Source: Escherichia virus TH28. Taken from it: a DNA stretch of 55,824 bases. The stretch is taken from sequence record MT446402.1. One strand, given 5' to 3'. The notes under the pieces are model-generated. The model saw only the letters and a list, made by a program, of their open reading frames with translations, did not search any database and was not told where the DNA came from. Below, piece by piece: positions 1 through 55,824 of this stretch. Within the stretch, counting starts at the first letter, position 1. The number at the start of each line of letters is the position of its first letter. The position numbers were made by a program, and so were the translations under genes.

Positions 1-53
1 TTCGGGGAGATTGCGATATCAACCTGAACTAAATCAGAAATTGGGATTGACAT
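1..53 (-). CDS. tail sheath protein, N-terminal fragment cut by window edge (copy A)
   Basis: Reverse translation of 1-53 gives MSIPISDLVQVDIAISP, the N-terminus of the 482-aa ORF at 50677..52125. Confidence 0.4.
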   Translation of the reverse strand, partial: MSIPISDLVQVDIAISP

Positions 54-56
54 TTA

Positions 57-575
57 TTAAACCTTTTTGGTTGTGATAAGTGTATTACCATCATAGAAGT
101 TGCCACCAACATATGCGCCAGACATGACTCCGATAGGACTCAAATCTTCACGAATAATATTGAATTGCATTCTAACCGCTTGGCGAACTTCCCAATTGGT
201 TTCCATTTGTATGGTGGCAAGATTTAAAGGTTCTTTACCAAGAGCAGCAAACTTCTCCTGCTTCAATTTGGCTTGAACATCGGGACGGTAAAACGAATTA
301 TCAAACTTGATAAATTCATCACCCTCACGAGAAAACATTATTGCAAATGTCAGAATACGAACACCACGAGTACGGAATATCTCTTCGCCATTAATGGTTA
401 CTATTCTGTTCTCGTCAAAACCTGGGTTGGTGCTTGATAAACATTTGATTGCAGCATACTCACCATGGGGTCGGGGAGCGTTAATCTGCATGTTGTATGT
501 AAATTGTGGGATGCCCACACATACATCTACAATCTCTTTCATGGATTGTAGTTCTTCAAGTCTAATATCCATCAC
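57..575 (-). CDS. head-tail joining / tail completion protein (copy A)
   Basis: 172-aa ORF between capsid genes and sheath; near-identical paralogue at 52128..52646. Confidence 0.4.
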   Translation of the reverse strand: MMDIRLEELQSMKEIVDVCVGIPQFTYNMQINAPRPHGEYAAIKCLSSTNPGFDENRIVTINGEEIFRTRGVRILTFAIMFSREGDEFIKFDNSFYRPDVQAKLKQEKFAALGKEPLNLATIQMETNWEVRQAVRMQFNIIREDLSPIGVMSGAYVGGNFYDGNTLITTKKV

Positions 576-988
576 TTCTCCAGTACACGAGCGGCAATTA
601 CAGAGAAGAATCCGGCATCTTCATAATCGTTTATTGCTATAACTTTATACTGAATGCCATAAACAGTGATGATTGATTTCATCGGCATTTCAGTACGACT
701 ATGAATCTTCATAAATGCTGGCTGACGTTCACCAACATCAGTTGCTTTAAGCTGTTGACCAGCTACACCCGAATCCCTGTCACCATATGCAATGGGAGTA
801 CAGCGGAACTTCTTCGGAGGTGCCCAAGAGTCTTCCACCCAATTATTAAGATTGTCATAATGACCTTCTATATATACTGCAAGGGTAGGACGACCAGTGG
901 TTGTGTATTTGTTGAAAGCTAAGCGTTGATTAATCAAAACTGGAACCCAGGACTTAACCTCGGCCCAGCAAATGCCATGCGCCGCCAT
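572..988 (-). CDS. head-tail connector region protein (copy A)
   Basis: 138-aa ORF in structural block; paralogue at 52643..53059 with divergent N-terminus. Confidence 0.4.
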   Translation of the reverse strand: MAAHGICWAEVKSWVPVLINQRLAFNKYTTTGRPTLAVYIEGHYDNLNNWVEDSWAPPKKFRCTPIAYGDRDSGVAGQQLKATDVGERQPAFMKIHSRTEMPMKSIITVYGIQYKVIAINDYEDAGFFSVIAARVLEK

Positions 989-1323
989 TGCAAATAACGT
1001 TGACCGTACACGGTTGACATGAAATCAGCTTCGATATATGGAATAGTCGAAATGATTCGGTCGCTGAACTCTACCTGTACATCGTCCACATCGGTACGAC
1101 TTACAGGCATAGCTGGCATTGCGGCATCACCAGGCATTATGTCGTCAATTGTTGAAGACCAATGCGCGACAAGTGATGCCATAGCTGGGTCATAAAACCC
1201 ACACCAACGCGATTCGATTGTACCCATCACAAGTTTTGCATCTTCAACTAAGATATCAAAACGACCTTGGGTCATGTCAGCCATAGCCGGATAACGTTTC
1301 ACCAAATCGGTCAGTGTAATCAT
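934..1323 (-). CDS. head-tail connector region protein (copy A)
   Basis: 129-aa ORF; paralogue at 53005..53394. Confidence 0.4.
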   Translation of the reverse strand: MITLTDLVKRYPAMADMTQGRFDILVEDAKLVMGTIESRWCGFYDPAMASLVAHWSSTIDDIMPGDAAMPAMPVSRTDVDDVQVEFSDRIISTIPYIEADFMSTVYGQRYLQWRRMAFAGPRLSPGFQF

Positions 1324-1763
1324 TATGCCAACTTATCGTAGAGAGCCAGTTTAACATCTTCCGGCATACCCTTGACGTCAACCCCATTCTTAACAAGGAT
1401 AGCATCAATATCAGGCATACCAACTTTCACGCGTTCAACAATGGAAAGAGAGCCAGCTTTGATTGCTTCTTTGACCAGGTTGACTTTACGAGTTTTACCA
1501 GTGCTGTAATACTCCTTGATGACCAGAGCTTCTTTACCAGTCTTAACAGAAGCGCCGATATTCTCGTCATCAAGCTGAACTACTTCTTCGCGCAGTTCTT
1601 CAACTTCCGTCATGGACTCCGTAAGAGACTTGTAAACTTCATCGTCGATTTCTACAGTTGCGCCACCAGGAACATGAATAAAGTCCAGCTCAGATTTGCC
1701 AGACTTCCCTTTCTTATAGAAGAAGAATTGAAGGTTGCGGGATTCGTTGTTCTTAATCTGCAT
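1323..1763 (-). CDS. head-tail connector region protein (copy A)
   Basis: 146-aa ORF; paralogue at 53395..53835 with many substitutions. Confidence 0.4.
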   Translation of the reverse strand: MQIKNNESRNLQFFFYKKGKSGKSELDFIHVPGGATVEIDDEVYKSLTESMTEVEELREEVVQLDDENIGASVKTGKEALVIKEYYSTGKTRKVNLVKEAIKAGSLSIVERVKVGMPDIDAILVKNGVDVKGMPEDVKLALYDKLA

Positions 1764-1810
1764 TACTATTTCTCTTAAGTTGTGGGCGAGAATAGTCCCG
1801 CCCTGTTTTA

Positions 1811-2818
1811 TTAGATGCCGGAGTTGATGGAGATTGCTGCCGGGTACATCGTTTGGAAGCCAGCGAAACGACCACGGCCAGGTACTTCATAAATCAGGCC
1901 ATGAAGCTGTACTGGTTGCCAGGTCAGCGGCAGAGGCTCACGCAGACGGAAAGTACGGTTGCCCATTGCGTTGCGGCAAACAACTACGAAGCAATCAGAA
2001 CCAGCATTGCCATGACCTTTGATTGCGTTCAGACCCTTGATTTTGTCGCGGGAGTTGATGAACTGGTTGTTGGCAATGAAGAACTGACCAATCGTCTTAT
2101 CAGACTGTTCAGAACGTGCGGTGTTGAAGATGTACTGCTCATGCTCAACAGGCATCCAGATTTCATCAGGGCGCATGATTTTCAGAGTAGAGGCATACAT
2201 TGCAGACACAGCAGCAGTCAGGTCGGCGATAACTTCGGTCGGAGTCTTCTCGGTCCACTTAGTAGAACCGCCAGCACCCTGAGCAACAGTTGCTTTGGTA
2301 ATGTCTGGGTTTTCGAAGAAGCCAACGAAGCCGTTAGCCTGGTCGCCGTACCATGCAGCAGAGTTTACATACTGCTCGTAACCACGAATCGCAGCATTTG
2401 CTTTACGAGTTTCCAGCGGCAGACCAGTTACAGCAGCAGATGCAACTTCGTCAATGTCGTAGTCGAATGCAGTACCAACAGACTTAACTGTTACGCTGTA
2501 TTCTTTACCAGAAATGCTAGACTTAGGCAGGTCAGTTGCACGGGCGTTAATCACCTGAGCTTTACCAACATGGTTGTAAGAACGGTAGGTCAGAGTGTTT
2601 ACGCCAGCACCGCCAGTGGTGTCCACGCCGAAAGCAGCACGCGCTTCCAGTTCAGGGTACAGGGTGTCGTAAGTTTGAGCTTCAATGAACTCAAGCTGGC
2701 GTTGAAAGAATACTGCGTCGTCATCGTTCAGGACAACAGTGCCAGAATCCTGGATACGAGTGATGGCGTCGTTCAGTTCAAATTCAGAACCGTCAGCCAG
2801 TTTAATCATCTTAGGCAT
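1811..2818 (-). CDS. major capsid protein (copy A)
   Basis: 335-aa ORF downstream of portal, protease/scaffold and decoration genes; size fits an HK97-fold capsid protein; paralogue at 53879..54886. Confidence 0.55.
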   Translation of the reverse strand: MPKMIKLADGSEFELNDAITRIQDSGTVVLNDDDAVFFQRQLEFIEAQTYDTLYPELEARAAFGVDTTGGAGVNTLTYRSYNHVGKAQVINARATDLPKSSISGKEYSVTVKSVGTAFDYDIDEVASAAVTGLPLETRKANAAIRGYEQYVNSAAWYGDQANGFVGFFENPDITKATVAQGAGGSTKWTEKTPTEVIADLTAAVSAMYASTLKIMRPDEIWMPVEHEQYIFNTARSEQSDKTIGQFFIANNQFINSRDKIKGLNAIKGHGNAGSDCFVVVCRNAMGNRTFRLREPLPLTWQPVQLHGLIYEVPGRGRFAGFQTMYPAAISINSGI

Positions 2819-2858
2819 TGTGATGTAATTCCATTATGTTGGCATATTGCCATTAAAT

Positions 2859-3203
2859 TTATGCTGTCCACACTTTAGACAGAGATGTACCTGCAACAGA
2901 CGTCCCGTAGGAGTCCTCAATTGTGCAGTTTACAGAGAAAGTTTTGCCAACCTGGTCGGCTGGAGTGGTTCCAGTAATGTGGGCGCGATTTACCGCGTCA
3001 TTTACCAGAGATAACCCACCAGCCCCTTCGGTTTCCATAGCAAACTTATAAATATAACTTCCATCATCTGCTTCTACCACTGCGGCAGGGTCAGTACGGA
3101 TGTAAAAGTCTACAGCTTCACCAGCAGTCAGTACAGCACCGATAGTGTTGCTCCACCCGCTTGTACCATTTGCAGAGTATTGCGTCTGACCGACGGAAGT
3201 CAA
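2859..3203 (-). CDS. Ig-like (Big_2-type) domain protein, probable capsid decoration (copy A)
   Basis: 114-aa Thr/Val/Ala/Gly-rich beta-type sequence between decoration and capsid genes; counterpart 54931..55182 has a different sequence. Confidence 0.4.
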   Translation of the reverse strand: MTSVGQTQYSANGTSGWSNTIGAVLTAGEAVDFYIRTDPAAVVEADDGSYIYKFAMETEGAGGLSLVNDAVNRAHITGTTPADQVGKTFSVNCTIEDSYGTSVAGTSLSKVWTA

Positions 3204-3220
3204 TTTAGCCTTCGGTGTGG

Positions 3221-3691
3221 TTACGCCTTTGGGAGTACGTTAATCATTACTGGAACAACATCACCAGCAGCCGCCGGATAGCGAAGTGCAGTCAGGTTTG
3301 TAGCAGCAGTGTAGGTGCCATCAACGCCACCAAATTGACCAGTGGCAGATACGCCAATGTTCTTGTCAGTGATTGCAGTAACCAGTTTAACCATGATTGG
3401 GCCAGACAGCATACGCCCAGAGGCCAGCCAGCTTTGATTGCAACAGTGCCGTCACCAGGACGGTTGCGATTCGATGTTAATCTGGCGCATAGTAATGCCC
3501 AGAACAGTGCCGTCGGCTTCAATACCAGGCTTAACCTGATTAGAAGCAGTACCCTGAACAACAGCTAAACCAAAGTTAGCCATTTCAGCTTCAGCATTGA
3601 AAGTCAGGCGCTGAGAGTTAGTGGTAGCCAGGCCATATTGCTCACCCGCATATGCTGCACCAGTATTAATAGACCAATCTTGCTTTGGCAT
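3221..3691 (-). pseudogene. head decoration-like protein, disrupted copy (copy A)
   Basis: Intact 157-aa homologue at 55224..55697; here a 2-nt and a 1-nt deletion relative to copy B create an out-of-frame stretch with an in-frame TGA at 3452-3454. Confidence 0.5.
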
Positions 3692-3700
3692 TGTCTTACC

Positions 3701-4942
3701 TTATAAAGAGTTGAAGCGTTCTAAACGACGTTTGTTAGCTTCTTCGGAAATAGAAACTTTAGGCTTACGAGCTTCTGAATCTTTCTTAGCAGAGAATTGC
3801 ATAGATTGGTTCAGTGCATCGCCCAAAGTAATGGAATCACAATCTTCAAGTGCTGCATCGAAACGAGCAGAGATATAATCTTCACTCTTATCGCTGAAAT
3901 CCTTGTCATGCAATTTATTAACTACAGCCAACTTAACTTCTGAATCGGACTTGCCGGAGAAATCAAGACTGGAGAATTCGTCGCCAAGACGGGCCACATC
4001 AATGAGAAGTGCTGTACGAGCAACAACACGTTTGTCTACCTCAGCCTGAATGGCTTCATCGGATAGTCGTGCAGTTTCTGCATCAGCAAGTTTCTGCTCA
4101 AGGGTGCTAATCTTGTCAAGCGCCGCATCACGCTCTGCTTCAACAACATCAAAGGTTGCCTTATCGACAATGGAAATCTCTTCACCAGAGTCACCAATGC
4201 GAGTAGTCTGAGCACGACCACGAACAACAATTGCAGCATGGTTAGGGATAATACGAACTTTGTCGAAGTCTGCATCGGCATCTTCTGCAACAGCCAGTTC
4301 TGCATTATGCCCCAGGGAGATTTGGTCAACGCCAGAATCAACTAATCGAATGGCTTGCTCGTCATTCAAAACGATTGATGCAGCCAAGAAAGAACCGTCT
4401 GCAATTGGACGACCTTCGATGAACCCTTTCTGGAGTTCTTTGTTGTTCTTGATATTGACGTCATCTTTTGGATGGCCGATAGTAACCGGAATTGAGCGAC
4501 AACCTTCGATGGTTGCTTCATCAAATAATACTTCCGGTTTGGTGCGAACACGGCAAACAGATTCTGGGTCTAGATGTTTTGCAATCTCACCAAGTTCTTT
4601 CGCTTTGTACAGCATAATGCCAGTACGAGCAATGGTGCATTCTGCAATCATTTCGCCAGAGTCGCGTAAACGACGGGTCGTCAGAGTAGCCTTGTCGGTT
4701 AACAAAACTACTTCATTCACAGTATCTTCGTCGTTAAGCTGGACCAGGTTTTGGCTTTGCTTCACTTGCGTTACCCTTTTGGATGTTAGGAGGTTTAGGA
4801 TTTGGCTTACCAAGGTCACAAGTTCCGAACACGCCCGAATGGAACATGACTTCATTTGCAACTTGCGTAGTAATGGTGCCGTTGTTAACCAGTAGGTCAA
4901 CAGCAAATGCCAAATCTTTAGCTCGCTTCGCTTTCTCAACAT
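3701..4942 (-). CDS. prohead protease / scaffold-like protein (true start probably near 4740)
   Basis: Acidic, helix-rich 413-aa ORF directly after portal; position typical of protease-scaffold fusions; overlaps portal ORF so an internal start is likely. Confidence 0.45.
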   Translation of the reverse strand: MLRKRSELKIWHLLLTYWLTTAPLLRKLQMKSCSIRACSELVTLVSQILNLLTSKRVTQVKQSQNLVQLNDEDTVNEVVLLTDKATLTTRRLRDSGEMIAECTIARTGIMLYKAKELGEIAKHLDPESVCRVRTKPEVLFDEATIEGCRSIPVTIGHPKDDVNIKNNKELQKGFIEGRPIADGSFLAASIVLNDEQAIRLVDSGVDQISLGHNAELAVAEDADADFDKVRIIPNHAAIVVRGRAQTTRIGDSGEEISIVDKATFDVVEAERDAALDKISTLEQKLADAETARLSDEAIQAEVDKRVVARTALLIDVARLGDEFSSLDFSGKSDSEVKLAVVNKLHDKDFSDKSEDYISARFDAALEDCDSITLGDALNQSMQFSAKKDSEARKPKVSISEEANKRRLERFNSL

Positions 4943-6263: not shown

Positions 6264-8309
6264 TTACATCCATGCCGAGTAGTTGGCACTTGGGCCGGAG
6301 AATTCGATTGCAACCATATCTGAAACGTTATCGACACAATCGTCGTGTCCAGTACCACTACCCAAAGAAGTGAATCCAAGTATTTCACGTCTAACGTGGT
6401 CAATGTGTTCATGACCAGCAGGGAAGAATATCCTCTTTTGAGAGAAATATGGGATTGCGTTAAGGAATCGAGTTACCTTGTCATTACCGTTAATGCCATC
6501 GCGAGGCAGTGGTAAGACTCGGACACTCCCATCTCTAATAAATTGTTGGTTCAAGAACTGTCCAGCAGACTTATCTTCCATGTACAAAGCACGAGGAATG
6601 CAGCCTACATATTTCAAATCCAACTTATTGCATTTATTCCAGAAGTCGATAATAGCAGTCTTGAGTTCTGGAGTTTCAAACTTACCGAGCATGATATCTA
6701 AACAATAAACATCACGCTCTTTAGTCACGCCCCAATGCTTAAGGACCGAATAGTCAGAATAAGACTTGGCAGTAGATGCCGTGTCAGCAGTAATGAAACT
6801 TCTAACTATGCGACTTCTGTCGAAAGCGTCTGGCTCATACTCTTGCCACCAATCTTCTTTAACAAGGCCATGACCTTGGGCAGACGGGTCGCCAGCATAC
6901 TGTGAGTTGTATGTGTATGGGTTGGACTCCTTCATTGCCTCCAAAGATTCTAAACTCTTACGTGAGGGCCACAATGCAGACTTCTCTTCTTTCCTGTTCA
7001 AATCATAGAGAATAGGGATAGCATGAGTGTAGTTCTGCTTCTTAATTAATTTGTCGTACCACTGAGCACTGCCAACACCTTTCTCAATAATCGCTGGGAT
7101 GTTGAGATAATGATATTTATCAGAGGAACCACCACGGAGTATATAGCCAACTAAATCTTGGTCATGAACTCGCTGCATGATGATAACCATTGGAGTACGA
7201 GAGCACTTAATTTGGTTTCCACGAGAATCGGTTATGCACCCATCATTGGCAAGACGGGACATAAAGGTGTTATCAAAGCGGTCGTTGATTTCTGCTCGAA
7301 CTGTGTCAGAGTAGGCATCCTTAGGTTTGATAACGTCATCCACCACAAAGCAACCAGAGTAGTTTGCAACAAGAAGTCCAGCACCTTTACCAGTTAATTT
7401 ACCACCAGTAGGTACTGCGTGCATAACTCCAGCTTTGGTCGTACCCCAGCGTTCAAGGGAACGTTTGTTGGGGTCGATTCTCACCTTTGGGAATATGCGT
7501 TGGAATAGTGGGTCCAGCATTACTGCGCGGATGTAACCGCTCGATTCCAATACAACGTCTTCTGCATAGGAGGTGATGATGTTGTGGCTTGATTCATTGT
7601 GGCAAAATGAATACAGTGGTAGTGCAATACTCATAAGCTGAGTCTTGGAATGTCGTGGTGGAATGGTGACAATTAGTCGGTCAATCTCACCGTCAACAAC
7701 TTTCTGACCTACTTTGAATATTACATCGTGAAAGTCTTGAGACTGGAATGGGAATCCCATTTGAATATGGAACTGCCATTTACCAAATGCTTCAAAACTC
7801 TTCATCAAAACTTTACGGACTTGTTCTGCAACCTTGGCTGGGATTACAGATGGGTCAACGTTGTGTGGGTCATAAAGGATTTTATCGACAAGCTCTTGAG
7901 TATTGTCGTGTTCAGAAGTTGGCTCTTCTAAAGTCGAACCAGCTACACGGTCTGATACCCCAGCTTGGATTCCTTTCTTCAACTCGTCGGCATACGCAGT
8001 TGAATCTTTCTTATCGCCAGAGCGAAGGCGCTCAAGTTGTGCTCGGAAAACGGAACGCAACACAGCATCGTTTTCCAGACCCTGGCCTTCTAACTCTGCT
8101 TGAATTTGTTCTTCATAGCTGTCAACTATCGCAGAGTTTTCTGAAATATATCGACGGAGCAATGGCAAAGATAGAATGCAGAATCTTTCTCTTGAGACTT
8201 TTAATACGTCACCGTAGTGTTTGGCAAGATACGAGGCTACTGTATCATTAAACTCCGGTCCGAGGTCATCAGTCTTTGACATTGATTCGTTCTCTTTGGT
8301 TTTAATCAC
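6264..8309 (-). CDS. terL: terminase large subunit
   Basis: 681 aa; Walker A-like PRHSKT, Walker B-like VVDD, C-terminal acidic nuclease motifs (ADTA, GHDD). Confidence 0.8.
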   Translation of the reverse strand: MIKTKENESMSKTDDLGPEFNDTVASYLAKHYGDVLKVSRERFCILSLPLLRRYISENSAIVDSYEEQIQAELEGQGLENDAVLRSVFRAQLERLRSGDKKDSTAYADELKKGIQAGVSDRVAGSTLEEPTSEHDNTQELVDKILYDPHNVDPSVIPAKVAEQVRKVLMKSFEAFGKWQFHIQMGFPFQSQDFHDVIFKVGQKVVDGEIDRLIVTIPPRHSKTQLMSIALPLYSFCHNESSHNIITSYAEDVVLESSGYIRAVMLDPLFQRIFPKVRIDPNKRSLERWGTTKAGVMHAVPTGGKLTGKGAGLLVANYSGCFVVDDVIKPKDAYSDTVRAEINDRFDNTFMSRLANDGCITDSRGNQIKCSRTPMVIIMQRVHDQDLVGYILRGGSSDKYHYLNIPAIIEKGVGSAQWYDKLIKKQNYTHAIPILYDLNRKEEKSALWPSRKSLESLEAMKESNPYTYNSQYAGDPSAQGHGLVKEDWWQEYEPDAFDRSRIVRSFITADTASTAKSYSDYSVLKHWGVTKERDVYCLDIMLGKFETPELKTAIIDFWNKCNKLDLKYVGCIPRALYMEDKSAGQFLNQQFIRDGSVRVLPLPRDGINGNDKVTRFLNAIPYFSQKRIFFPAGHEHIDHVRREILGFTSLGSGTGHDDCVDNVSDMVAIEFSGPSANYSAWM

Positions 8310-33449: not shown

Positions 33450-33499
33450 GTAAGGCTAGCTCGTTACAACAGCGTGCTCTGATTGCCTTTGACCTTGAC

Positions 33500-33960
33500 C
33501 CACTACCTAACTTGGTGTTGATTGAAAGCCGATAGGCTATAGGAAAAAGTTGGGGTAGGGACCGTATTTAAGTCCGATAGGACGTTGGGCTTCCCCTCCT
33601 CGGAGATAAAATTTTAAAAATAATAATGACACAACTTCCCCCCCCCCCCGCCACCTCAAAAATAAAATAATATCGCCACAATTCTAGTCTCATTAATATT
33701 GAAACAATTCGAGTCTCATTAATTCCGTAGCAATATTTAAATTAAAAAAAAAAAAATTATATAAAATTTTTATAACATAGTCGGGCTTCTGTTCGAACAA
33801 ATTTCGGCTAGATACAGCTGACCGATTGTGAACGAGTCTATGTCCAGATACAGTTGACCGATCATTTACCATTTGGTTTGAACTTTACGCATTCCTAATA
33901 TTACTTTAAATATTGTAGCAATATTGGGAATAAGTAATATTGAAAACTTACTTATTTTAT
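33500..33960. other. repeat- and homopolymer-rich intergenic region (candidate genome end, origin or packaging region)
   Basis: C12 at 33638-33649, A13 at 33744-33756, direct repeats CAGATACAG(C/T)TGACCGAT at 33811 and 33844, AGTCTCATTAAT at 33687 and 33711, CAATATT-type motifs. Confidence 0.45.
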
Positions 33961-49570: not shown

Positions 49571-49841
49571 TGTCTTCTTCTTTAGGTTTTAGTTCATTAC
49601 GCAAATCAAGTATTGCGTGGAAAGTTAACAAATCCATAATAGAGTAGGTCCCGTCCGAGAGTTCTTTAAGAGAACAGAGAGAACTGTCCTCTATTACAGG
49701 ACGGTGCAGGAAGTATTTTATTTCCGGGAACTTCTGAGTTAAATCGTTTCCGGACTCGAATTCTTCTGCTCGGCCATTTTGGATGCTTCCACCGCCTCCA
49801 ATTGTCTGCGTTCGTTGAGTTCGAGCCCTTGCTTGAAAAAA
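49563..49841 (-). other. -1 frame extension of tail assembly chaperone (frameshift product)
   Basis: From the slippery heptamer the -1 frame stays open for about 92 codons and stops at 49563-49565, overlapping the next gene's ATG at 49568-49570. Confidence 0.5.
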
Positions 49842-50197
49842 TCAAGGAAGTTCGATTCAAGAACAAATGCAAACACATGGTGCATGAGCATTAAATTGCC
49901 GTTGTACTTCATCTGCATAGTGCGTGGATTAACTTCGACACCATCAATGGTTGCCATACACACTACACGTTTAATTAATTCTGTTACTTCCGTATGAGTT
50001 CCACCCTGCTGCATCAAATGAATAATGTCTGCAAAGTTATATTTGTTCTCAACGAATGGGAATATCGAAATACCGAGTTTCTGAACAAGCTCGACTTGGA
50101 GGTCAAGAGCTTGGCTGGCACCGAGTTGTCGCGTACCAACCAAGACTGTCTCACCAGAGTCGGCTTGTAACTCGCGTTGGCGAAGTTCACAAGCCAT
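49739..50197 (-). CDS. tail assembly chaperone
   Basis: 152-aa ORF between tube and tape-measure-position genes; contains slippery site. Confidence 0.55.
   Translation of the reverse strand: MACELRQRELQADSGETVLVGTRQLGASQALDLQVELVQKLGISIFPFVENKYNFADIIHLMQQGGTHTEVTELIKRVVCMATIDGVEVNPRTMQMKYNGNLMLMHHVFAFVLESNFLDFFKQGLELNERRQLEAVEASKMAEQKNSSPETI
49835..49841 (-). promoter_or_regulatory. -1 ribosomal frameshift slippery heptamer U UUU UUC
   Basis: Minus strand gat-ttt-ttc with zero-frame codons UUU UUC (X XXY YYZ pattern). Confidence 0.5.
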
Positions 50198-50676: not shown

Positions 50677-52125
50677 TTACTGAATGAAGTTGCCAGAGAT
50701 TACAGCACCCTGGATTGCACCGGAACCGATAGCAATAAAGGAAGTACCTTCCCAAATACGTTCACCCTTCTGCGACTGCAAGAGTTCTAACGGAGTAGAA
50801 ATAACTTTGTAGCCTTCTGGATAGAAGACGCCTTCGTTATCATAGCCAGGGGCAATGAGGCCGTTAGTCTTAGCGAGTTCGAGCGCCAGGGTTACTTGCT
50901 GGTTAACCATTGCTACACCAGTGTCCGTCCAAGGAATCTTGGTAGTGGAGGTGTAGAACAAGTTGAACACGTTCAGTCGAACTTTCTGAGTCAGCCATTC
51001 AACACCTTGTACGGAGTCGAACCATGTGCCGTCAGCCATACGACCGTTGTAGAACATTACGTTGCCAGCAACAGAAATGAATGCGTTACCACCACAAGAA
51101 AGCAGCGCACTTACCTGCCCAGAAGACAGGTCAGCAGTGGCGATACCTGGACCTTTCTTGTATGCCAGAATAAGAACAGAGTTTGCAACGTTAAAGTTAA
51201 CAGTTGATGCACGACCCAGGATAGAAATTTCCGGATATTCATCACCATTCGCAGAAGCATCGTAAACACACAGAGTGTTACGCAGGTTCTGGTTCTTAGC
51301 ACGACGGAAGCTGTTATCAGTGCCGTTGATAAGAATGTTCTTGTCGTTATCACCCCAGCCAAATACTTTGCTGGATGCTTCACACCACTTCGCCACAGAC
51401 ATTTGGTTGTCTACTGGAGAGGTTTTGCCACGATACTGGCGGTCAAGGCCCACATAGAAGAAGTTGAATGGAGCATCTGCAATATTAGACAAGTCGGAAG
51501 AAATGGATAGCTCGTTCTTACCAGCAACAATAACTGCGCTGTCAGAAGATTGCAGTTTCAGTACTTCACCAACTTTACCACCAACGTTGCTGATAGTTGC
51601 GTTGATGCCAGTTGCAGAAGTGGTCAGCTTGAACTTGCCAGCTTCCTGAGTAACAGTTACGCCAGCACCAACAGAAGATAGTGCAGTAGTTACTAGAGTT
51701 GCAACTTCTTCGAAGTCAGCAGCAGCAGAGAAATCAATCGGGTCAGTAACATACTGAACACCGCTAACACTTAACTGCATGGTTGCAGCAGTTTCCAGCT
51801 TAATGGTTGCCAATACAGCAGCAGTTGCAGCAGTAACAGTGGCAGGAGTTGCTGGAGTCAAAGTATCGTACTTGATAGCACCAACCAGGAAAGTCTTCGG
51901 AGTTGGCTTCTGCGAGTACCAAGAGGTAGCAGCTTTAGCAATCTCACCACCAGGGAAGTCTGCGAGAACTTCTTTCAAACTGGTATAGGAACGAACCGGA
52001 TATACATCAACGGTCGGTACAAACTCTTTGCTCATAAAGAGCAATGGCCCAAAACCATCGGTCGCAATGGCGTTCGGGGAGATTGCGATATCAACCTGAA
52101 CTAAATCAGAAATTGGGATTGACAT
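50677..52125 (-). CDS. tail sheath protein
   Basis: 482 aa immediately upstream of tube gene; size and position fit Mu/P2-type sheath. Confidence 0.5.
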   Translation of the reverse strand: MSIPISDLVQVDIAISPNAIATDGFGPLLFMSKEFVPTVDVYPVRSYTSLKEVLADFPGGEIAKAATSWYSQKPTPKTFLVGAIKYDTLTPATPATVTAATAAVLATIKLETAATMQLSVSGVQYVTDPIDFSAAADFEEVATLVTTALSSVGAGVTVTQEAGKFKLTTSATGINATISNVGGKVGEVLKLQSSDSAVIVAGKNELSISSDLSNIADAPFNFFYVGLDRQYRGKTSPVDNQMSVAKWCEASSKVFGWGDNDKNILINGTDNSFRRAKNQNLRNTLCVYDASANGDEYPEISILGRASTVNFNVANSVLILAYKKGPGIATADLSSGQVSALLSCGGNAFISVAGNVMFYNGRMADGTWFDSVQGVEWLTQKVRLNVFNLFYTSTTKIPWTDTGVAMVNQQVTLALELAKTNGLIAPGYDNEGVFYPEGYKVISTPLELLQSQKGERIWEGTSFIAIGSGAIQGAVISGNFIQ

Positions 52126-52127
52126 TA

Positions 52128-52646
52128 TTAAACCTTTTTGGTTGTGATAAGTGTATTACCATCATAGAAGTTGCCACCAACATATGCGCCAGACATGACT
52201 CCGATAGGACTCAAATCTTCACGAATAACATTGAATTGCATTTTAACCGCTTGGCGAACTTCCCAATTGGTTTCCATTTGTATGGTGGCAAGATTTAAAG
52301 GTTCTTTACCAAGAGCAGCAAACTTCTCCTGCTTCAATTTGGCTTGAACATCGGGACGGTAAAACGAATTATCAAACTTGATAAATTCATCACCCTCACG
52401 AGAAAACATTATTGCAAATGTCAGAATACGAACACCACGAGTACGGAATATCTCTTCGCCATTAATGGTTACTATTCTGTTCTCGTCAAAACCTGGGTTG
52501 GTGCTTGATAAACATTTGATTGCAGCATACTCACCATGGGGTCGGGGAGCGTTAATCTGCATGTTGTATGTAAATTGTGGGATGCCCACACATACATCTA
52601 CAATCTCTTTCATGGATTGTAGTTCTTCAAGTCTAATATCCATCAC
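52128..52646 (-). CDS. head-tail joining / tail completion protein (copy B)
   Basis: 172 aa; 2 substitutions relative to 57..575. Confidence 0.45.
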   Translation of the reverse strand: MMDIRLEELQSMKEIVDVCVGIPQFTYNMQINAPRPHGEYAAIKCLSSTNPGFDENRIVTINGEEIFRTRGVRILTFAIMFSREGDEFIKFDNSFYRPDVQAKLKQEKFAALGKEPLNLATIQMETNWEVRQAVKMQFNVIREDLSPIGVMSGAYVGGNFYDGNTLITTKKV

Positions 52647-53059
52647 TTCTCCAGTACGCGAGCGGCAATCACGGAGAAGAACCCAGCATCTTCATAATCG
52701 TTTATTGCTATAACTTTATACTGAATGCCGTAAACAGTGATAATGGATTTCATAGGCATCTTAGTACGACTATGAATCTTCATGAATGCTGGCTGACGTT
52801 CGCCAACATCAGTCGCTTTAAGCTGTTGACCAGCTACACCTGAATCCCTGTCTCCATATGCAATGGGAGTACAGCGGAACTTCTTCGGAGGTGCCCAGGA
52901 ATCTTCCACCCAGTTATTAAGATTGTCGTAATAACCTTCTATATAAACTGCAATGGTGGGTCGGTTTGTGGTTGTGTATCTGTTAAATGCTCGACGTTGA
53001 TTTATCACATCTGCCACCCTGGAGAAATTCGAGGGCCAGCAAAAGCCATACGTCGCCAT
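52643..53059 (-). CDS. head-tail connector region protein (copy B)
   Basis: 138 aa; paralogue of 572..988. Confidence 0.4.
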   Translation of the reverse strand: MATYGFCWPSNFSRVADVINQRRAFNRYTTTNRPTIAVYIEGYYDNLNNWVEDSWAPPKKFRCTPIAYGDRDSGVAGQQLKATDVGERQPAFMKIHSRTKMPMKSIITVYGIQYKVIAINDYEDAGFFSVIAARVLEK

Positions 53060-53394
53060 TGCAAATAACGTTGCCCATAAACGGTAGACATGAGGTCAGC
53101 TTCAACATAGGGAATTGTTGAAATGATTCGGTCGCTAAACTCTACCTGCACATCGTCAACATCTGTACGACTTACAGGTATAGATGGCATAGCAGCATCC
53201 CCAGGCAGTAGGTCGTCAATTGTTGAAGACCAATGCGCAATAAGGGATGCCATTGCTGGGTCATAAAACCCACACCAACGCGATTCGATTGTTCCCATCA
53301 TCAGTTTTGCATCTTCAACTAAGATTTCAAAACGGTCTTGGGTCATGTCAGCCATTGCAGGATAACGTTTAACCAAATCGGTTAGTGTTATCAT
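53005..53394 (-). CDS. head-tail connector region protein (copy B)
   Basis: 129 aa; paralogue of 934..1323. Confidence 0.4.
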   Translation of the reverse strand: MITLTDLVKRYPAMADMTQDRFEILVEDAKLMMGTIESRWCGFYDPAMASLIAHWSSTIDDLLPGDAAMPSIPVSRTDVDDVQVEFSDRIISTIPYVEADLMSTVYGQRYLQWRRMAFAGPRISPGWQM

Positions 53395-53835
53395 TTACGC
53401 CAACTTATCGTAGAGGGCCAGTTTAGCTTCTTCCGGCATATCTTTGATGTTCACGCCGTTAGCAACCAACACTTTATCAATGTCAGGCATACCAACTTTC
53501 ACGCGTTCAACAATAGACAGACTGCCAGCTTTGATAGCTTCTTTGACCAGGTTTACTTTACGAGTTTTACCCGTGGTGTAATATTCCTTAATCACGAGTG
53601 CTTCTTTGCCAGACTTAACGTCAGCACCAATGTTGGAGTCGTCCAGCTTAACTTCTTCTTCACGCATCACTTCAACTTCAGTGACAGAAGAGGTAATTGC
53701 TTTATACACTTCATCATCAATTTCAACAGTTGCACCGCCAGGAATGTGTACAAAATCCAGTACAGGTTTGCCAGATTTATCCTTCTTATAGAAGAAGAAT
53801 TGGAGGTTGCGAGTTTCGTTGTTCTTAAGCTGCAT
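53395..53835 (-). CDS. head-tail connector region protein (copy B)
   Basis: 146 aa; paralogue of 1323..1763. Confidence 0.4.
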   Translation of the reverse strand: MQLKNNETRNLQFFFYKKDKSGKPVLDFVHIPGGATVEIDDEVYKAITSSVTEVEVMREEEVKLDDSNIGADVKSGKEALVIKEYYTTGKTRKVNLVKEAIKAGSLSIVERVKVGMPDIDKVLVANGVNIKDMPEEAKLALYDKLA

Positions 53836-53878
53836 TACATTTCTCTTAAATTAGGCGAGATTTCTCCCGCCATCTGGG

Positions 53879-54886
53879 TTAAATACCGGAGTTGATGGAG
53901 ATTGCTGCCGGGTACATTGCCTGGAAGCCAGCGAAACGGCCACGACCAGGTACTTCATAAACCAGACCATGCAGCTGAACTGGTTGCCAAGTTAACGGCA
54001 GCGGTTCACGCAGACGGAAGGTGCGGTTGCCCATAGCTTCACGGCACACAACTACGAAGCAATCTGCGCCAGAAGCACCGTGACCTTTGATTGCATTAAG
54101 GCCCTTGATTTTGTCACGGGAATTAATGAACTGGTTGTTGTCAATGAAGAACTGACCGATAGTCTTATCAGACTGCTCAGAACGTGCGGTGTTGAAGATG
54201 TACTGCTCATGCTCAACAGGCATCCAGATTTCAGAAGGACGCATGATTTTCAGAGTAGATGCGTACATTGCAGACACAGCAGTGGTCAGGTCAGCAATAA
54301 CTTCGGTCGGAGTCTTCTCGTTCCACTTGGTAGAACTGCCAGCGCCCTGAGCAACAGTTGCTTTGGTAACGTCTGGGTTTTCGAAGAAGCCAACAAAGCC
54401 GTTAGCCTGGTCGCCGTACCATGCAGCGGAGTTTACATACTGCTCGTAACCACGAATCGCAGCATTTGCTTTACGAGTTTCCAGCGGCAGACCAGTTACA
54501 GCAGCAGATGCAACTTCGTCAATGTCATAGTCGAATGCAGTACCAACAGACTTAACTGTTACGCTGTATTCTTTACCAGAAATGCTGGACTTCGGCAGGT
54601 CGGTTGCACGGGCGTTGATTACCTGAGCTTTACCAACATGGTTGTATGAACGGTAGGTCAGCGTGTTAACACCAGCGCCGCCAGTAGTATCAACACCGAA
54701 AGCAGCACGAGCTTCCAGTTCAGGATACAGGGTGTCGTAAGTTTGAGCTTCAATGAACTCAAGCTGACGTTGAAAGAACACTGCGTCGTCGTCATTCAAA
54801 ACAACGGTGCCAGAGTCCTGGATACGGGTGATGGCATCATTCAGTTCAAATTCAGAACCGTCGGCCAGTTTAATCATCTTTGGCAT
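53879..54886 (-). CDS. major capsid protein (copy B)
   Basis: 335 aa; paralogue of 1811..2818 with few substitutions. Confidence 0.55.
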   Translation of the reverse strand: MPKMIKLADGSEFELNDAITRIQDSGTVVLNDDDAVFFQRQLEFIEAQTYDTLYPELEARAAFGVDTTGGAGVNTLTYRSYNHVGKAQVINARATDLPKSSISGKEYSVTVKSVGTAFDYDIDEVASAAVTGLPLETRKANAAIRGYEQYVNSAAWYGDQANGFVGFFENPDVTKATVAQGAGSSTKWNEKTPTEVIADLTTAVSAMYASTLKIMRPSEIWMPVEHEQYIFNTARSEQSDKTIGQFFIDNNQFINSRDKIKGLNAIKGHGASGADCFVVVCREAMGNRTFRLREPLPLTWQPVQLHGLVYEVPGRGRFAGFQAMYPAAISINSGI

Positions 54887-54930
54887 TAAATTTATTCCAT
54901 TAGGCGCAGATTATTCTACGCCAATTAAAC

Positions 54931-55182
54931 TTAAGGATGCGTAATGGTGATTGCTTTAGTAGCAGTTACACCAGGAGCAGTCTTATGAGTTGCTTTGATT
55001 GTTGCAGAAGTCGCAGTACCAATCGTCGCAGTTGCAACAGTTACAGTACCATTGGCCGCCACAGTTACTCCAGTGACCGCTGGGTCAACAGTGAAGTTGT
55101 AGTCACTTGCAACAGAGTTTGCAAACGTAAACAGTTTATCAACAGTTACGGTAGCATTTACAGTTGAAGCATCAGCAGTCAC
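54931..55182 (-). CDS. Ig-like (Big_2-type) domain protein (copy B, different sequence from copy A)
   Basis: 83 aa, Thr/Val/Ala-rich beta-strand repeats (VTVAANGTVTVATATIGTAT). Confidence 0.4.
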   Translation of the reverse strand: MTADASTVNATVTVDKLFTFANSVASDYNFTVDPAVTGVTVAANGTVTVATATIGTATSATIKATHKTAPGVTATKAITITHP

Positions 55183-55223
55183 AGCCGCCGCTACCGCAGT
55201 AACGGTCGGTGCTGGAGGTGGCG

Positions 55224-55697
55224 TTACGACTTTGGGACTACGTTAATCATGACCGGAACAACATCACCAGCAGCAGCCGGATAGCGAAGTGCAGTCAGGT
55301 TGGTTGCCTTAGTATAGCCAGCGCCAACACCACCAAATTGACCAGTGGCAGACACGCCAATGTTCTTGTCAGTGATTGCAGTAACCAGTTTAACCATGAT
55401 TGGGCCAGACAGCATAACGCCCAGAGGCCAGCCAGCTTTGATTGCAACAGTGCCGTCACCAGGACGAGTTGCGGATTCGATGTTAATCTGGCGCATAGTA
55501 ATGCCCAGAACAGTGCCGTCGGCTTCAATACCAGGCTTAACCTGATTAGAAGCAGTACCCTGAACAACAGCTAAACCAAAGTTAGCCATTTCAGCTTCAG
55601 CATTGAAAGTCAGGCGCTGAGAGTTAGTGGTAGCCAGGCCATATTGCTCACCCGCATATGCTGCACCAGTATTAATAGACCAATCTTGCTTTGGCAT
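55224..55697 (-). CDS. head decoration-like protein (copy B, intact)
   Basis: 157-aa ORF; intact version of the split gene at 3221..3691. Confidence 0.45.
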   Translation of the reverse strand: MPKQDWSINTGAAYAGEQYGLATTNSQRLTFNAEAEMANFGLAVVQGTASNQVKPGIEADGTVLGITMRQINIESATRPGDGTVAIKAGWPLGVMLSGPIMVKLVTAITDKNIGVSATGQFGGVGAGYTKATNLTALRYPAAAGDVVPVMINVVPKS

Positions 55698-55706
55698 TGT
55701 CTTACC

Positions 55707-55824
55707 TTATAAAGAGTTGAAGCGTTCTAAACGACGTTTGTTAGCTTCTTCGGAAATAGAAACTTTAGGCTTACGAGCTTCTGAATCTTTCTTAGCAGAG
55801 AATTGCATAGATTGGTTCAGTGCA
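55707..55824 (-). CDS. prohead protease / scaffold-like protein, C-terminal fragment cut by window edge (copy B)
   Basis: 55697-55824 is identical to 3691-3818, which covers the 3' end of ORF 3701..4942. Confidence 0.4.
   Translation of the reverse strand, partial: ALNQSMQFSAKKDSEARKPKVSISEEANKRRLERFNSL

Follow-up and report, generated by a model that had tools for sequence, protein, structure and literature searches.

How can one position in a phage head-gene cluster hold two unrelated immunoglobulin (Ig)-like sequences between genes that are otherwise closely similar, and how would such sequences be expressed? The question arises from the record of Escherichia virus TH28 (MT446402.1), a stretch of 55,824 nucleotides (nt) that is called the window here. 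Regions near its two ends, denoted copy A and copy B, carry the same series of head genes, and the original prediction held that an Ig-like open reading frame (ORF) of 114 amino acids (aa) in copy A is replaced in copy B by an unrelated one of 83 aa, indicative of cassette-like exchange of a surface-exposed domain. Both ORFs are present as claimed, the first at 2859-3203 on the minus strand with a TTG start and the second at 54931-55182 on the minus strand with a GTG start, these starts being the output of an ORF caller only. Comparison of the window with related phages suggests that the variable ‘gene’ is most likely a -1 frameshift extension of the gene that precedes it, which is predicted to encode a capsid cement protein.

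In 5'-3' order the region, whose genes all lie on the minus strand, runs from the portal (PF06381) and protease (DUF2213) genes through a gene for a 157-aa protein to the variable slot and the major capsid protein gene (PF09950); a 146-aa protein and a DUF4054 protein follow, and the series continues to tail terminator and sheath. The argument turns on these features:

55230-55236, minus strand: slippery heptamer C_CCA_AAG of copy B, in the zero frame, one codon ahead of the TAA stop at 55224-55226
3227-3233, minus strand: slippery heptamer C_CCA_AAG of copy A, in the zero frame, one codon ahead of the TAA stop at 3221-3223
54934-55230, minus strand: putative -1 extension of copy B, 99 aa, a Pro-rich linker (VVTPPPAPTV...) and a Big_2-like Ig domain; stop at 54931-54933
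2862-3227, minus strand: putative -1 extension of copy A, 122 aa, a linker (GVTTPKAK) and a phrog_18016 Ig-like beta-sandwich; stop at 2859-2861
55224-55697, minus strand: predicted capsid cement (decoration) gene of copy B, 157 aa, intact, the zero-frame product; PF22758 and phrog_563
3221-3691, minus strand: cement gene of copy A, broken into 79-aa and 63-aa ORFs by three single-base deletions
53879-54886, minus strand: major capsid gene of copy B, 335 aa, the downstream border of the slot; PF09950 Major_capside (E 1.7e-47) and phrog_264 (E 5e-85)
1811-2818, minus strand: major capsid gene of copy A, 335 aa, 96.4% identical to copy B

The 3' end of the cement gene reads C_CCA_AAG-NNN-TAA in both copies, and this heptamer is listed among those that are highly shift-prone in E. 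coli (PMC5009743). Beyond the heptamer, in both copies, the -1 frame stays open almost up to the capsid gene and the +1 frame is closed. The two ORFs reported at the outset lie within these -1 frames: the 114-aa ORF of copy A is the part of the 122-aa extension downstream of the TTG at 3203, and the 83-aa ORF of copy B is the part of the 99-aa extension downstream of an internal GTG. Translation from the slip site would add the linkers, which include the peptide VVTPPPAPTVTAVAAAVTADASTVNATVTVDK upstream of the first possible start in copy B; tryptic peptides of the copy A extension would comprise the linker peptide GVTTPK as well as LTSVGQTQYSANGTSGWSNTIGAVLTAGEAVDFYIR. Transcriptional slippage was considered and set aside, as the A-run has just three bases. 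Promoters and terminators within the slot were no more frequent than expected by chance. At the far end of the slot, small hairpins that differ from each other follow the two variable segments, one at 2840-2852 in copy A (TGGCA-TAT-TGCCA) and one at ~54905-54924 in copy B (on the minus-strand reading, GGCGTAGA-ATAA-TCTGCGCC); both directly precede a common TAATGGAAT upstream of the capsid gene start.

The same arrangement recurs among relatives. The survey covered 27 related loci besides the window copies. They come from 15 isolate genomes that differ from one another, a single IMG/VR contig and 10 further metagenome contigs; phiEcoM-GJ1 entered from two sources and so counts twice, and individual loci are given L numbers where these are needed. 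Wherever a slot exists (~220-630 nt between the cement and capsid genes), a slippery site stands in register and the +1 frame is closed. The heptamer is C_CCA_AAG in 21 of the 23 slot-bearing loci, despite neighbouring codons that differ widely (VVPKS, VVPKP, VLPKA, VLPKQ, GPKP, APK and DLPK), and the divergent relative L037 has G_GGA_AAG, another canonical heptamer. Zero or one codon separates the heptamer from the stop across loci, a spacing at which the stop may aid slipping. Loci that lack a slot, namely four from Nefertitivirinae (Shewanella, Aeromonas and Vibrio phages) and L035, have 15-72 nt between the two genes and no slippery site. Downstream of the slip site, the -1 extensions of relatives span 97-193 aa where the module is full-length and just 50 aa in PYps3T, and each opens with a Pro-rich or TPKAK linker directly past the slip site, that is, upstream of any possible start. 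No extension contains an ATG within its first 45 codons, and those of flopper, 4HA13, Aioli and 2KOFFS contain no ATG, GTG or TTG there. Taken together, the site, its register, the open -1 frame, the linkers and the lack of a conserved start make a strong comparative case for -1 frameshifting as the way in which the slot is read.

The same observations bear on a more conventional view of the slot, in which the variable ORFs are free-standing small genes, each with its own TTG or GTG start, whose products are separate Ig-like decoration proteins that bind the capsid unaided. We consider this improbable. ORFs in the slot are indeed annotated in GenBank, for example Y2 gp67 (‘Ig domain containing protein’), PYps23T ORF057 and Faunus gp52, but the annotated starts vary between records and the slot is unannotated in many. 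More generally, public annotation of the slot is inconsistent, being either empty or filled by short ORFs with varying starts, and none of the records inspected annotates the frameshift. Copy A does have AAGG ahead of its TTG, at a spacing of 5; however, ATT stands in place of this TTG in L031, as does GTA in L034 and L036. Candidate starts of the type seen in copy B lack a Shine-Dalgarno match, and translation from them would truncate the domain; four loci have no start codon in the first 45 codons. In phage 9g, a homologous domain does occur in a separate 147-aa gene after the capsid gene, yet the free-standing homologues have extra N-terminal regions, whereas a bare Ig domain of 83-114 aa would have no capsid-binding part. 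Separate genes would also leave the conserved slippery heptamer and the fixed -1 frame unexplained.

Alternatively, the slot could be an untranslated spacer or the decaying remnant of a domain that was once fused to the cement protein, devoid of present function. The extension of PYps3T is truncated to 50 aa and L035 has no slot at all, and the domain is therefore evidently dispensable. Decay is nonetheless hard to reconcile with -1 frames of 97-193 aa that stay open in ~20 diverged loci, with high protein conservation within each type (26 invariant columns in a six-sequence alignment of A-type modules, for instance), with confident AlphaFold2 (AF2) folds, or with a tandem duplication in flopper that keeps the frame; we regard a functionless slot as extremely improbable.

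Several points weigh against frameshifting as the means of expression. The literature searched gave neither a paper on a frameshift in Chaseviridae or phiEcoM-GJ1 nor a virion proteome with the long form. A TTG lies five bases past AAGG not just in copy A but in L030 as well, and a GTG takes this place in L028; independent initiation is therefore conceivable in those genomes. Homologues of the copy A module in other phages are parts of ordinary, non-frameshifted proteins. Across the window, CCCAAAG is not enriched (7 found versus 7.3 expected), and the weight of the heptamer thus rests only on its position, frame and conservation. Three further findings fall on this side: Proteus phage Myduc has GCA_AAG only, a weaker site; folding of the 80 nt downstream in seven loci revealed no shared stimulatory RNA structure, with z-scores of -0.9 to +1.1 in six of the seven, -2.9 in GJ1, and hairpins that begin ~20 nt away; and an in-frame cement-Ig fusion was found in none of 95 clusters of cement relatives (lengths 145-177 aa), so that no natural ‘Rosetta stone’ supports a link between the two parts. 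Finally, the cement gene of copy A is interrupted in this record, and no fusion could therefore be made from copy A as written. As a separate observation, besides the heptamers of the two cement genes the coding strand of the window has just one CCCAAAG, at 7485-7491 (minus strand).

The interruption of the copy A cement gene is probably due to consensus errors. In the alignment, two of its three single-base deletions fall between ~3468 and 3458 and the third at 3413/3412 (minus strand); all coincide with sites that are polymorphic among relatives and lie near the point where the two ends of the window return to near-identity. In L030 and L031, independent contigs with the same cassette, the cement gene is intact at 157 aa.

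By its profile matches, the 157-aa product is a capsid cement protein. It matches Pfam PF22758 Phage_cement (the family of E217 gp24 and Pam3 gp6) at E 7e-17 and 62.3 bits, the cutoff being 27, over its full length (residues 4-152 on positions 4-146 of the 146-position profile), and also matches the virion structural protein family phrog_563 (E 6e-27). Its relatives carry a precomputed PF22758 assignment. Searches of PDB sequences with the cement protein and with the copy A module returned nothing useful. E217 gp24 is a 211-residue trimeric beta-tulip decoration protein located at three-fold and quasi-three-fold axes (PMC10329688). The protein studied here resembles E217 gp24 and Pam3 gp6 in its gene position, in the interval between protease and major capsid genes, and in the full-length match to the hidden Markov model of the family; in contrast, E217 gp24 is described with 211 residues and without mention of a frameshift extension, and the present protein is assigned to the family by its sequence match.

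We next consider what the slot contains. An Ig-like nature, as originally proposed, holds for both window domains, which model as Ig-like beta-sandwiches; the more specific search for Big_2 or fibronectin III domains gave no Pfam match for either. The module of copy B (module B) matches phrog_13745, ‘Ig domain containing protein’ (E 2e-6), and its AF2 model, with a predicted local distance difference test score (pLDDT) of 93, is an Ig-like beta-sandwich like known phage Ig modules. Against Pfam, it finds no Ig or Big_2 family at E <= 1 and only GBD_Hemicentin at E 0.017. The module of copy A (module A) matches phrog_18016 (E 4e-36, residues 3-122) and no Pfam Ig family, and its AF2 model (pLDDT 83) has Ig-like beta-sandwich topology. 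Homologues of module A with 45-66% identity occur in 22 phage records. The module is rare, with 29 representative clusters among 1.84 billion proteins, and in full-length matches it is mostly C-terminal in proteins of variable size; in phages 9g, phiEap-2, APT65 and P778 it forms the C-terminus of proteins that lie beside head genes or are annotated as head proteins.

Among the surveyed loci, at least five Ig-like modules that are unrelated to one another occupy the slot, as one copy or two and always in the -1 frame:

B-type, Big_2-like module: many E. coli, Yersinia, Erwinia and Pantoea phages
2968-3550 of phage flopper (L005), -1 frame: tandem B-type domains, 193 aa
2271-2420 of PYps3T (L008): truncated B-type module with an internal deletion, a 50-aa stub
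Diverged B-like module: PM1 and Aioli
Lambda-gpV/Hoc-like Ig: Berlingot and five other Erwinia phages
Myduc-type Ig: three Proteus phages
Double I-set-like module: L037
A-type module (phrog_18016): copy A and metagenome contigs L028-L034 and L036

The tandem in flopper and the stub in PYps3T show that the presence and copy number of the module vary among close relatives. Y2 and Berlingot are filed as the same species and differ in their modules. The Berlingot-type Ig is closest, at 58-62% identity, to the C-terminal parts of major tail proteins from Klebsiella and lambdoid phages.

Does one genome carry both versions of the locus, as the notion of two copies implied? In BLASTN comparisons of the window ends, exactly two homologous blocks appear: 1-2836 pairs with 52073-54902 at 89.8% identity over 2837 nt, and 3214-3818 pairs with 55217-55824 at 96.1%. 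Measured from end to end, the identity of the copies is 98-100% at 1-600 and from ~3413 on, and 78-96% between. In alignments to Escherichia virus TH23 (52,433 nt), window 3214-33911 corresponds to TH23 21739-52433 at 99.89% and window 33473-55824 to TH23 1-22346 at 99.97%, and window 1-2836 shows only 89.9% identity to TH23. These alignments therefore resolve the window into one circularly permuted genome with overlapping ends; judged by them, it is a ~52-kb phiEcoM-GJ1-like myophage genome (Chaseviridae, Cleopatravirinae), and the two ‘copies’ are a single locus seen twice, with copy B as the TH23-type allele. The claim of two copies accordingly does not stand, as the two regions are overlapping ends of one permuted record and not two loci of one genome. 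The ends of the TH23 record themselves overlap by ~439 nt (window 33473-33911). The features of the overlap are as follows:

1-3818 and 52073-55824, no strand: end overlap of ~3.8 kb, with a divergent allele block at ~600-3370 (~2.8 kb)
2837-3213, minus strand: cassette A, the 377-nt segment without DNA homology to copy B (gap between BLASTN blocks)
54903-55216, minus strand: cassette B, the 314-nt segment without DNA homology to copy A (BLASTN gap), 100% identical in Escherichia virus TH23/TH33

The identity pattern fits two alleles of a ~2.8-kb block in a mixed or recombinant population that were joined by assembly, and does not fit a true repeat. On this account, copy A would be the ~2.8-kb allele of a co-occurring or recombinant variant, and the first ~3.4 kb of the window would derive from that second variant. 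Taken at face value, the record does hold two diverged head-gene blocks, and terminal repeats are common among phages, so that a long terminal repeat or a duplication might let each virion encode both Ig variants. Such a genome is very unlikely: the near-identical TH23 genome (52,433 nt) has the head-gene block once, as do all relatives of 51-55 kb; the copies are 10% apart, whereas terminal repeats share one template and are identical; and the repeat would cut through structural genes and leave the cement gene broken in one copy. The record therefore calls for caution, as its paired ‘copies’ and broken cement gene are best explained by assembly of a mixed phage population.

If assembly joined the two alleles, it might also have created the difference between them, with cassette A being foreign to this type of phage and mis-joined to its backbone from a mixed sample. 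Record ends that overlap yet disagree are in themselves an assembly product, the three deletions in the copy A cement gene fall at polymorphic sites near the return of identity and suggest a muddled consensus, and cassette A is missing from all isolate genomes of the family in our phage collection (108 related Chaseviridae records). Nevertheless, contig L030, an independent sequence of 15.6 kb, carries an identical cassette A flanked by an intact cement gene and the capsid gene. In contigs of 52-53 kb that come from several further samples (L028, L031-L033, L034 and L036), variants with ~60-85% aa identity take up this slot, and 117 blocks of the collection list the cement variant found in L036. 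These independent contigs already largely refute a chimeric origin, which we hold to be scarcely plausible. With ~60-100% aa identity in the same slot of at least five metagenomic lineages from several samples, cassette A is genuine. The IMG/VR data covered five relatives of the cement gene only, and an exact 33-mer of cassette A had no match in IMG/VR.

The two alleles differ by replacement. BLASTP of the 114-aa against the 83-aa ORF indicates unrelated sequences (E 3.3), a six-frame tblastx of cassette A against cassette B found no similarity (best E 0.51 over 15 aa), and profile-profile comparison of the modules by hhalign gave a probability of 0.1%. The ORFs are thus unrelated, as was claimed, and tblastx, blastn-short and hhalign rule out that they are frame-shifted forms of one sequence. 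The flanks, stated to be 90-99% conserved, are highly similar indeed, with a measured protein range that is wider (81.5-98.8%): identity between copies is 98.8% for the terminator, 87.7% for the 138-aa protein, 89.9% for the DUF4054 protein, 81.5% for the 146-aa protein and 96.4% for the major capsid protein. A non-homologous block inside flanks so similar is not due to chance. Homology between A and B ends a few codons past the slip site, where both linkers begin V-T-x-P, and returns ~16-18 nt ahead of the ATG of the capsid gene. No direct or inverted repeats shared by cassettes A and B bound them, and relatives therefore probably exchange modules by homologous recombination within the flanks. 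Unrelated modules would have reached different lineages by recombination between two borders, the conserved start of the linker past the slip site and the ribosome-binding region ahead of the capsid gene; the original captures may have been illegitimate events, kept by selection only if they fell in the -1 frame. Variation by a diversity-generating retroelement, an invertible segment or a shufflon was rejected, given that there are no flanking repeats, that the cassettes are unrelated rather than point-varied and that the neighbours are ordinary head genes. Cassette-like exchange of an Ig-like domain, the central proposal of the original prediction, is hence supported in substance, with the amendments that it does not concern two loci and probably does not concern free-standing genes.

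If the slot is read by frameshifting, most ribosomes would terminate at the cement stop and release the 157-aa protein, and a minority would slip by -1 on CCA-AAG and produce a cement-linker-Ig fusion of ~255 aa (B) or ~278 aa (A), with an Ig-like domain of ~100-120 aa. By analogy with the trimeric beta-tulip E217 gp24, the long form could co-assemble with the short form at three-fold positions, and the result would be a sub-stoichiometric display of few Ig-like domains per capsid on the head surface. We infer the occurrence and efficiency of frameshifting, the incorporation of the long form into virions and any binding by the domain.

According to a review of recoding (PMC5009743), frameshifting has repeatedly been recruited to attach Ig-like domains to the C-termini of phage structural proteins. 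Examples are the major capsid proteins 10A/10B of T3, the capsid protein of Lactobacillus phage A2 and the capsid and tail proteins of Listeria phages A118, A500 and PSA (Fraser et al., via PMC5009743). As in those systems, the structural gene described here ends at a slippery site, a minority product would carry an Ig-like domain so that short and long forms coexist, and the Ig modules are promiscuous between proteins and phages. Unlike them, the carrier is a cement protein of the beta-tulip family PF22758 and not a major capsid or tail tube protein, one slot receives at least five unrelated modules, and the long form is predicted from sequence. The frameshift site of T3 is CCCAAAG too. Hoc and pb10 likewise combine a capsid-binding part with outward Ig-like domains, are probably dispensable and are thought to mediate weak adhesion to glycans or surfaces; they are, however, single in-frame proteins with their own capsid sites, whereas the Ig domain here would ride on a fraction of the cement subunits at a copy number set by the efficiency of frameshifting. 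The lambda-like G/GT tail assembly chaperone (G_GGA_AAG) shares the bacterial type of -1 heptamer ending in A_AAG and the two-product logic, and the heptamer of L037 is identical to it. It differs in gene, product and role, the G/GT extension being a conserved domain for assembly rather than an exchangeable module on the surface.

Ig-like extensions made by frameshifting on phage structural proteins are already known in kind. What appears to be new is a PF22758 cement protein as the carrier, an unannotated event conserved across the examined Cleopatravirinae, and the capacity of one slot to take in at least five modules that are unrelated to one another. Should the frameshift be real, every examined Cleopatravirinae genome is mis- or under-annotated at the slot, including those of E. 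coli, Yersinia, Erwinia and Pectobacterium phages under study for therapy and biocontrol. The locus would then offer a clean natural case in which Ig domains on the capsid surface are exchanged as modules and are coupled to a recoding signal that sets their dose, would bear on how phages tune their adhesion to environments such as mucus, and would provide a ready-made low-copy site for display of foreign domains on these capsids. More speculatively, and with the balance in our view tilted against so broad a scheme, the slot might be a Cleopatravirinae-wide ‘display socket’: the fixed -1 site would set a low copy number, any Ig-like adhesin in the -1 frame would be shown on the capsid, close relatives would differ in head adhesion, and phrog_18016 would be a new family of glycan- or surface-binding Ig domains. 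Were this so, phages even within one sample or species could differ in adhesion, for example to mucus, host glycans or particles.

A few further observations concern the neighbourhood. Of the flanking proteins, the 146-aa one encoded after the capsid gene (1323-1763 and 53395-53835, minus strand; phrog_14310, a family of unknown function) differs most between the alleles (81.5% aa identity) and may be another surface-exposed component of the head or neck. The cement protein of L035 (1501-2034), a locus that has neither slot nor slippery site, bears an in-frame acidic C-terminal tail of 20 aa, for 177 aa in total. In Shigella phage 2KOFFS (L021, 2623-3629), the major capsid gene is annotated as two coding sequences (2623-3222 and 3240-3629), probably because of a frameshift error in the record. 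Lastly, a 152-aa ORF in the tail module of the window (49739-50197, minus strand) has a counterpart in L031 that carries PF21822 Phage_TAC_15, so that a second frameshift, of the classical tail-assembly-chaperone kind, is probable immediately downstream of this ORF.

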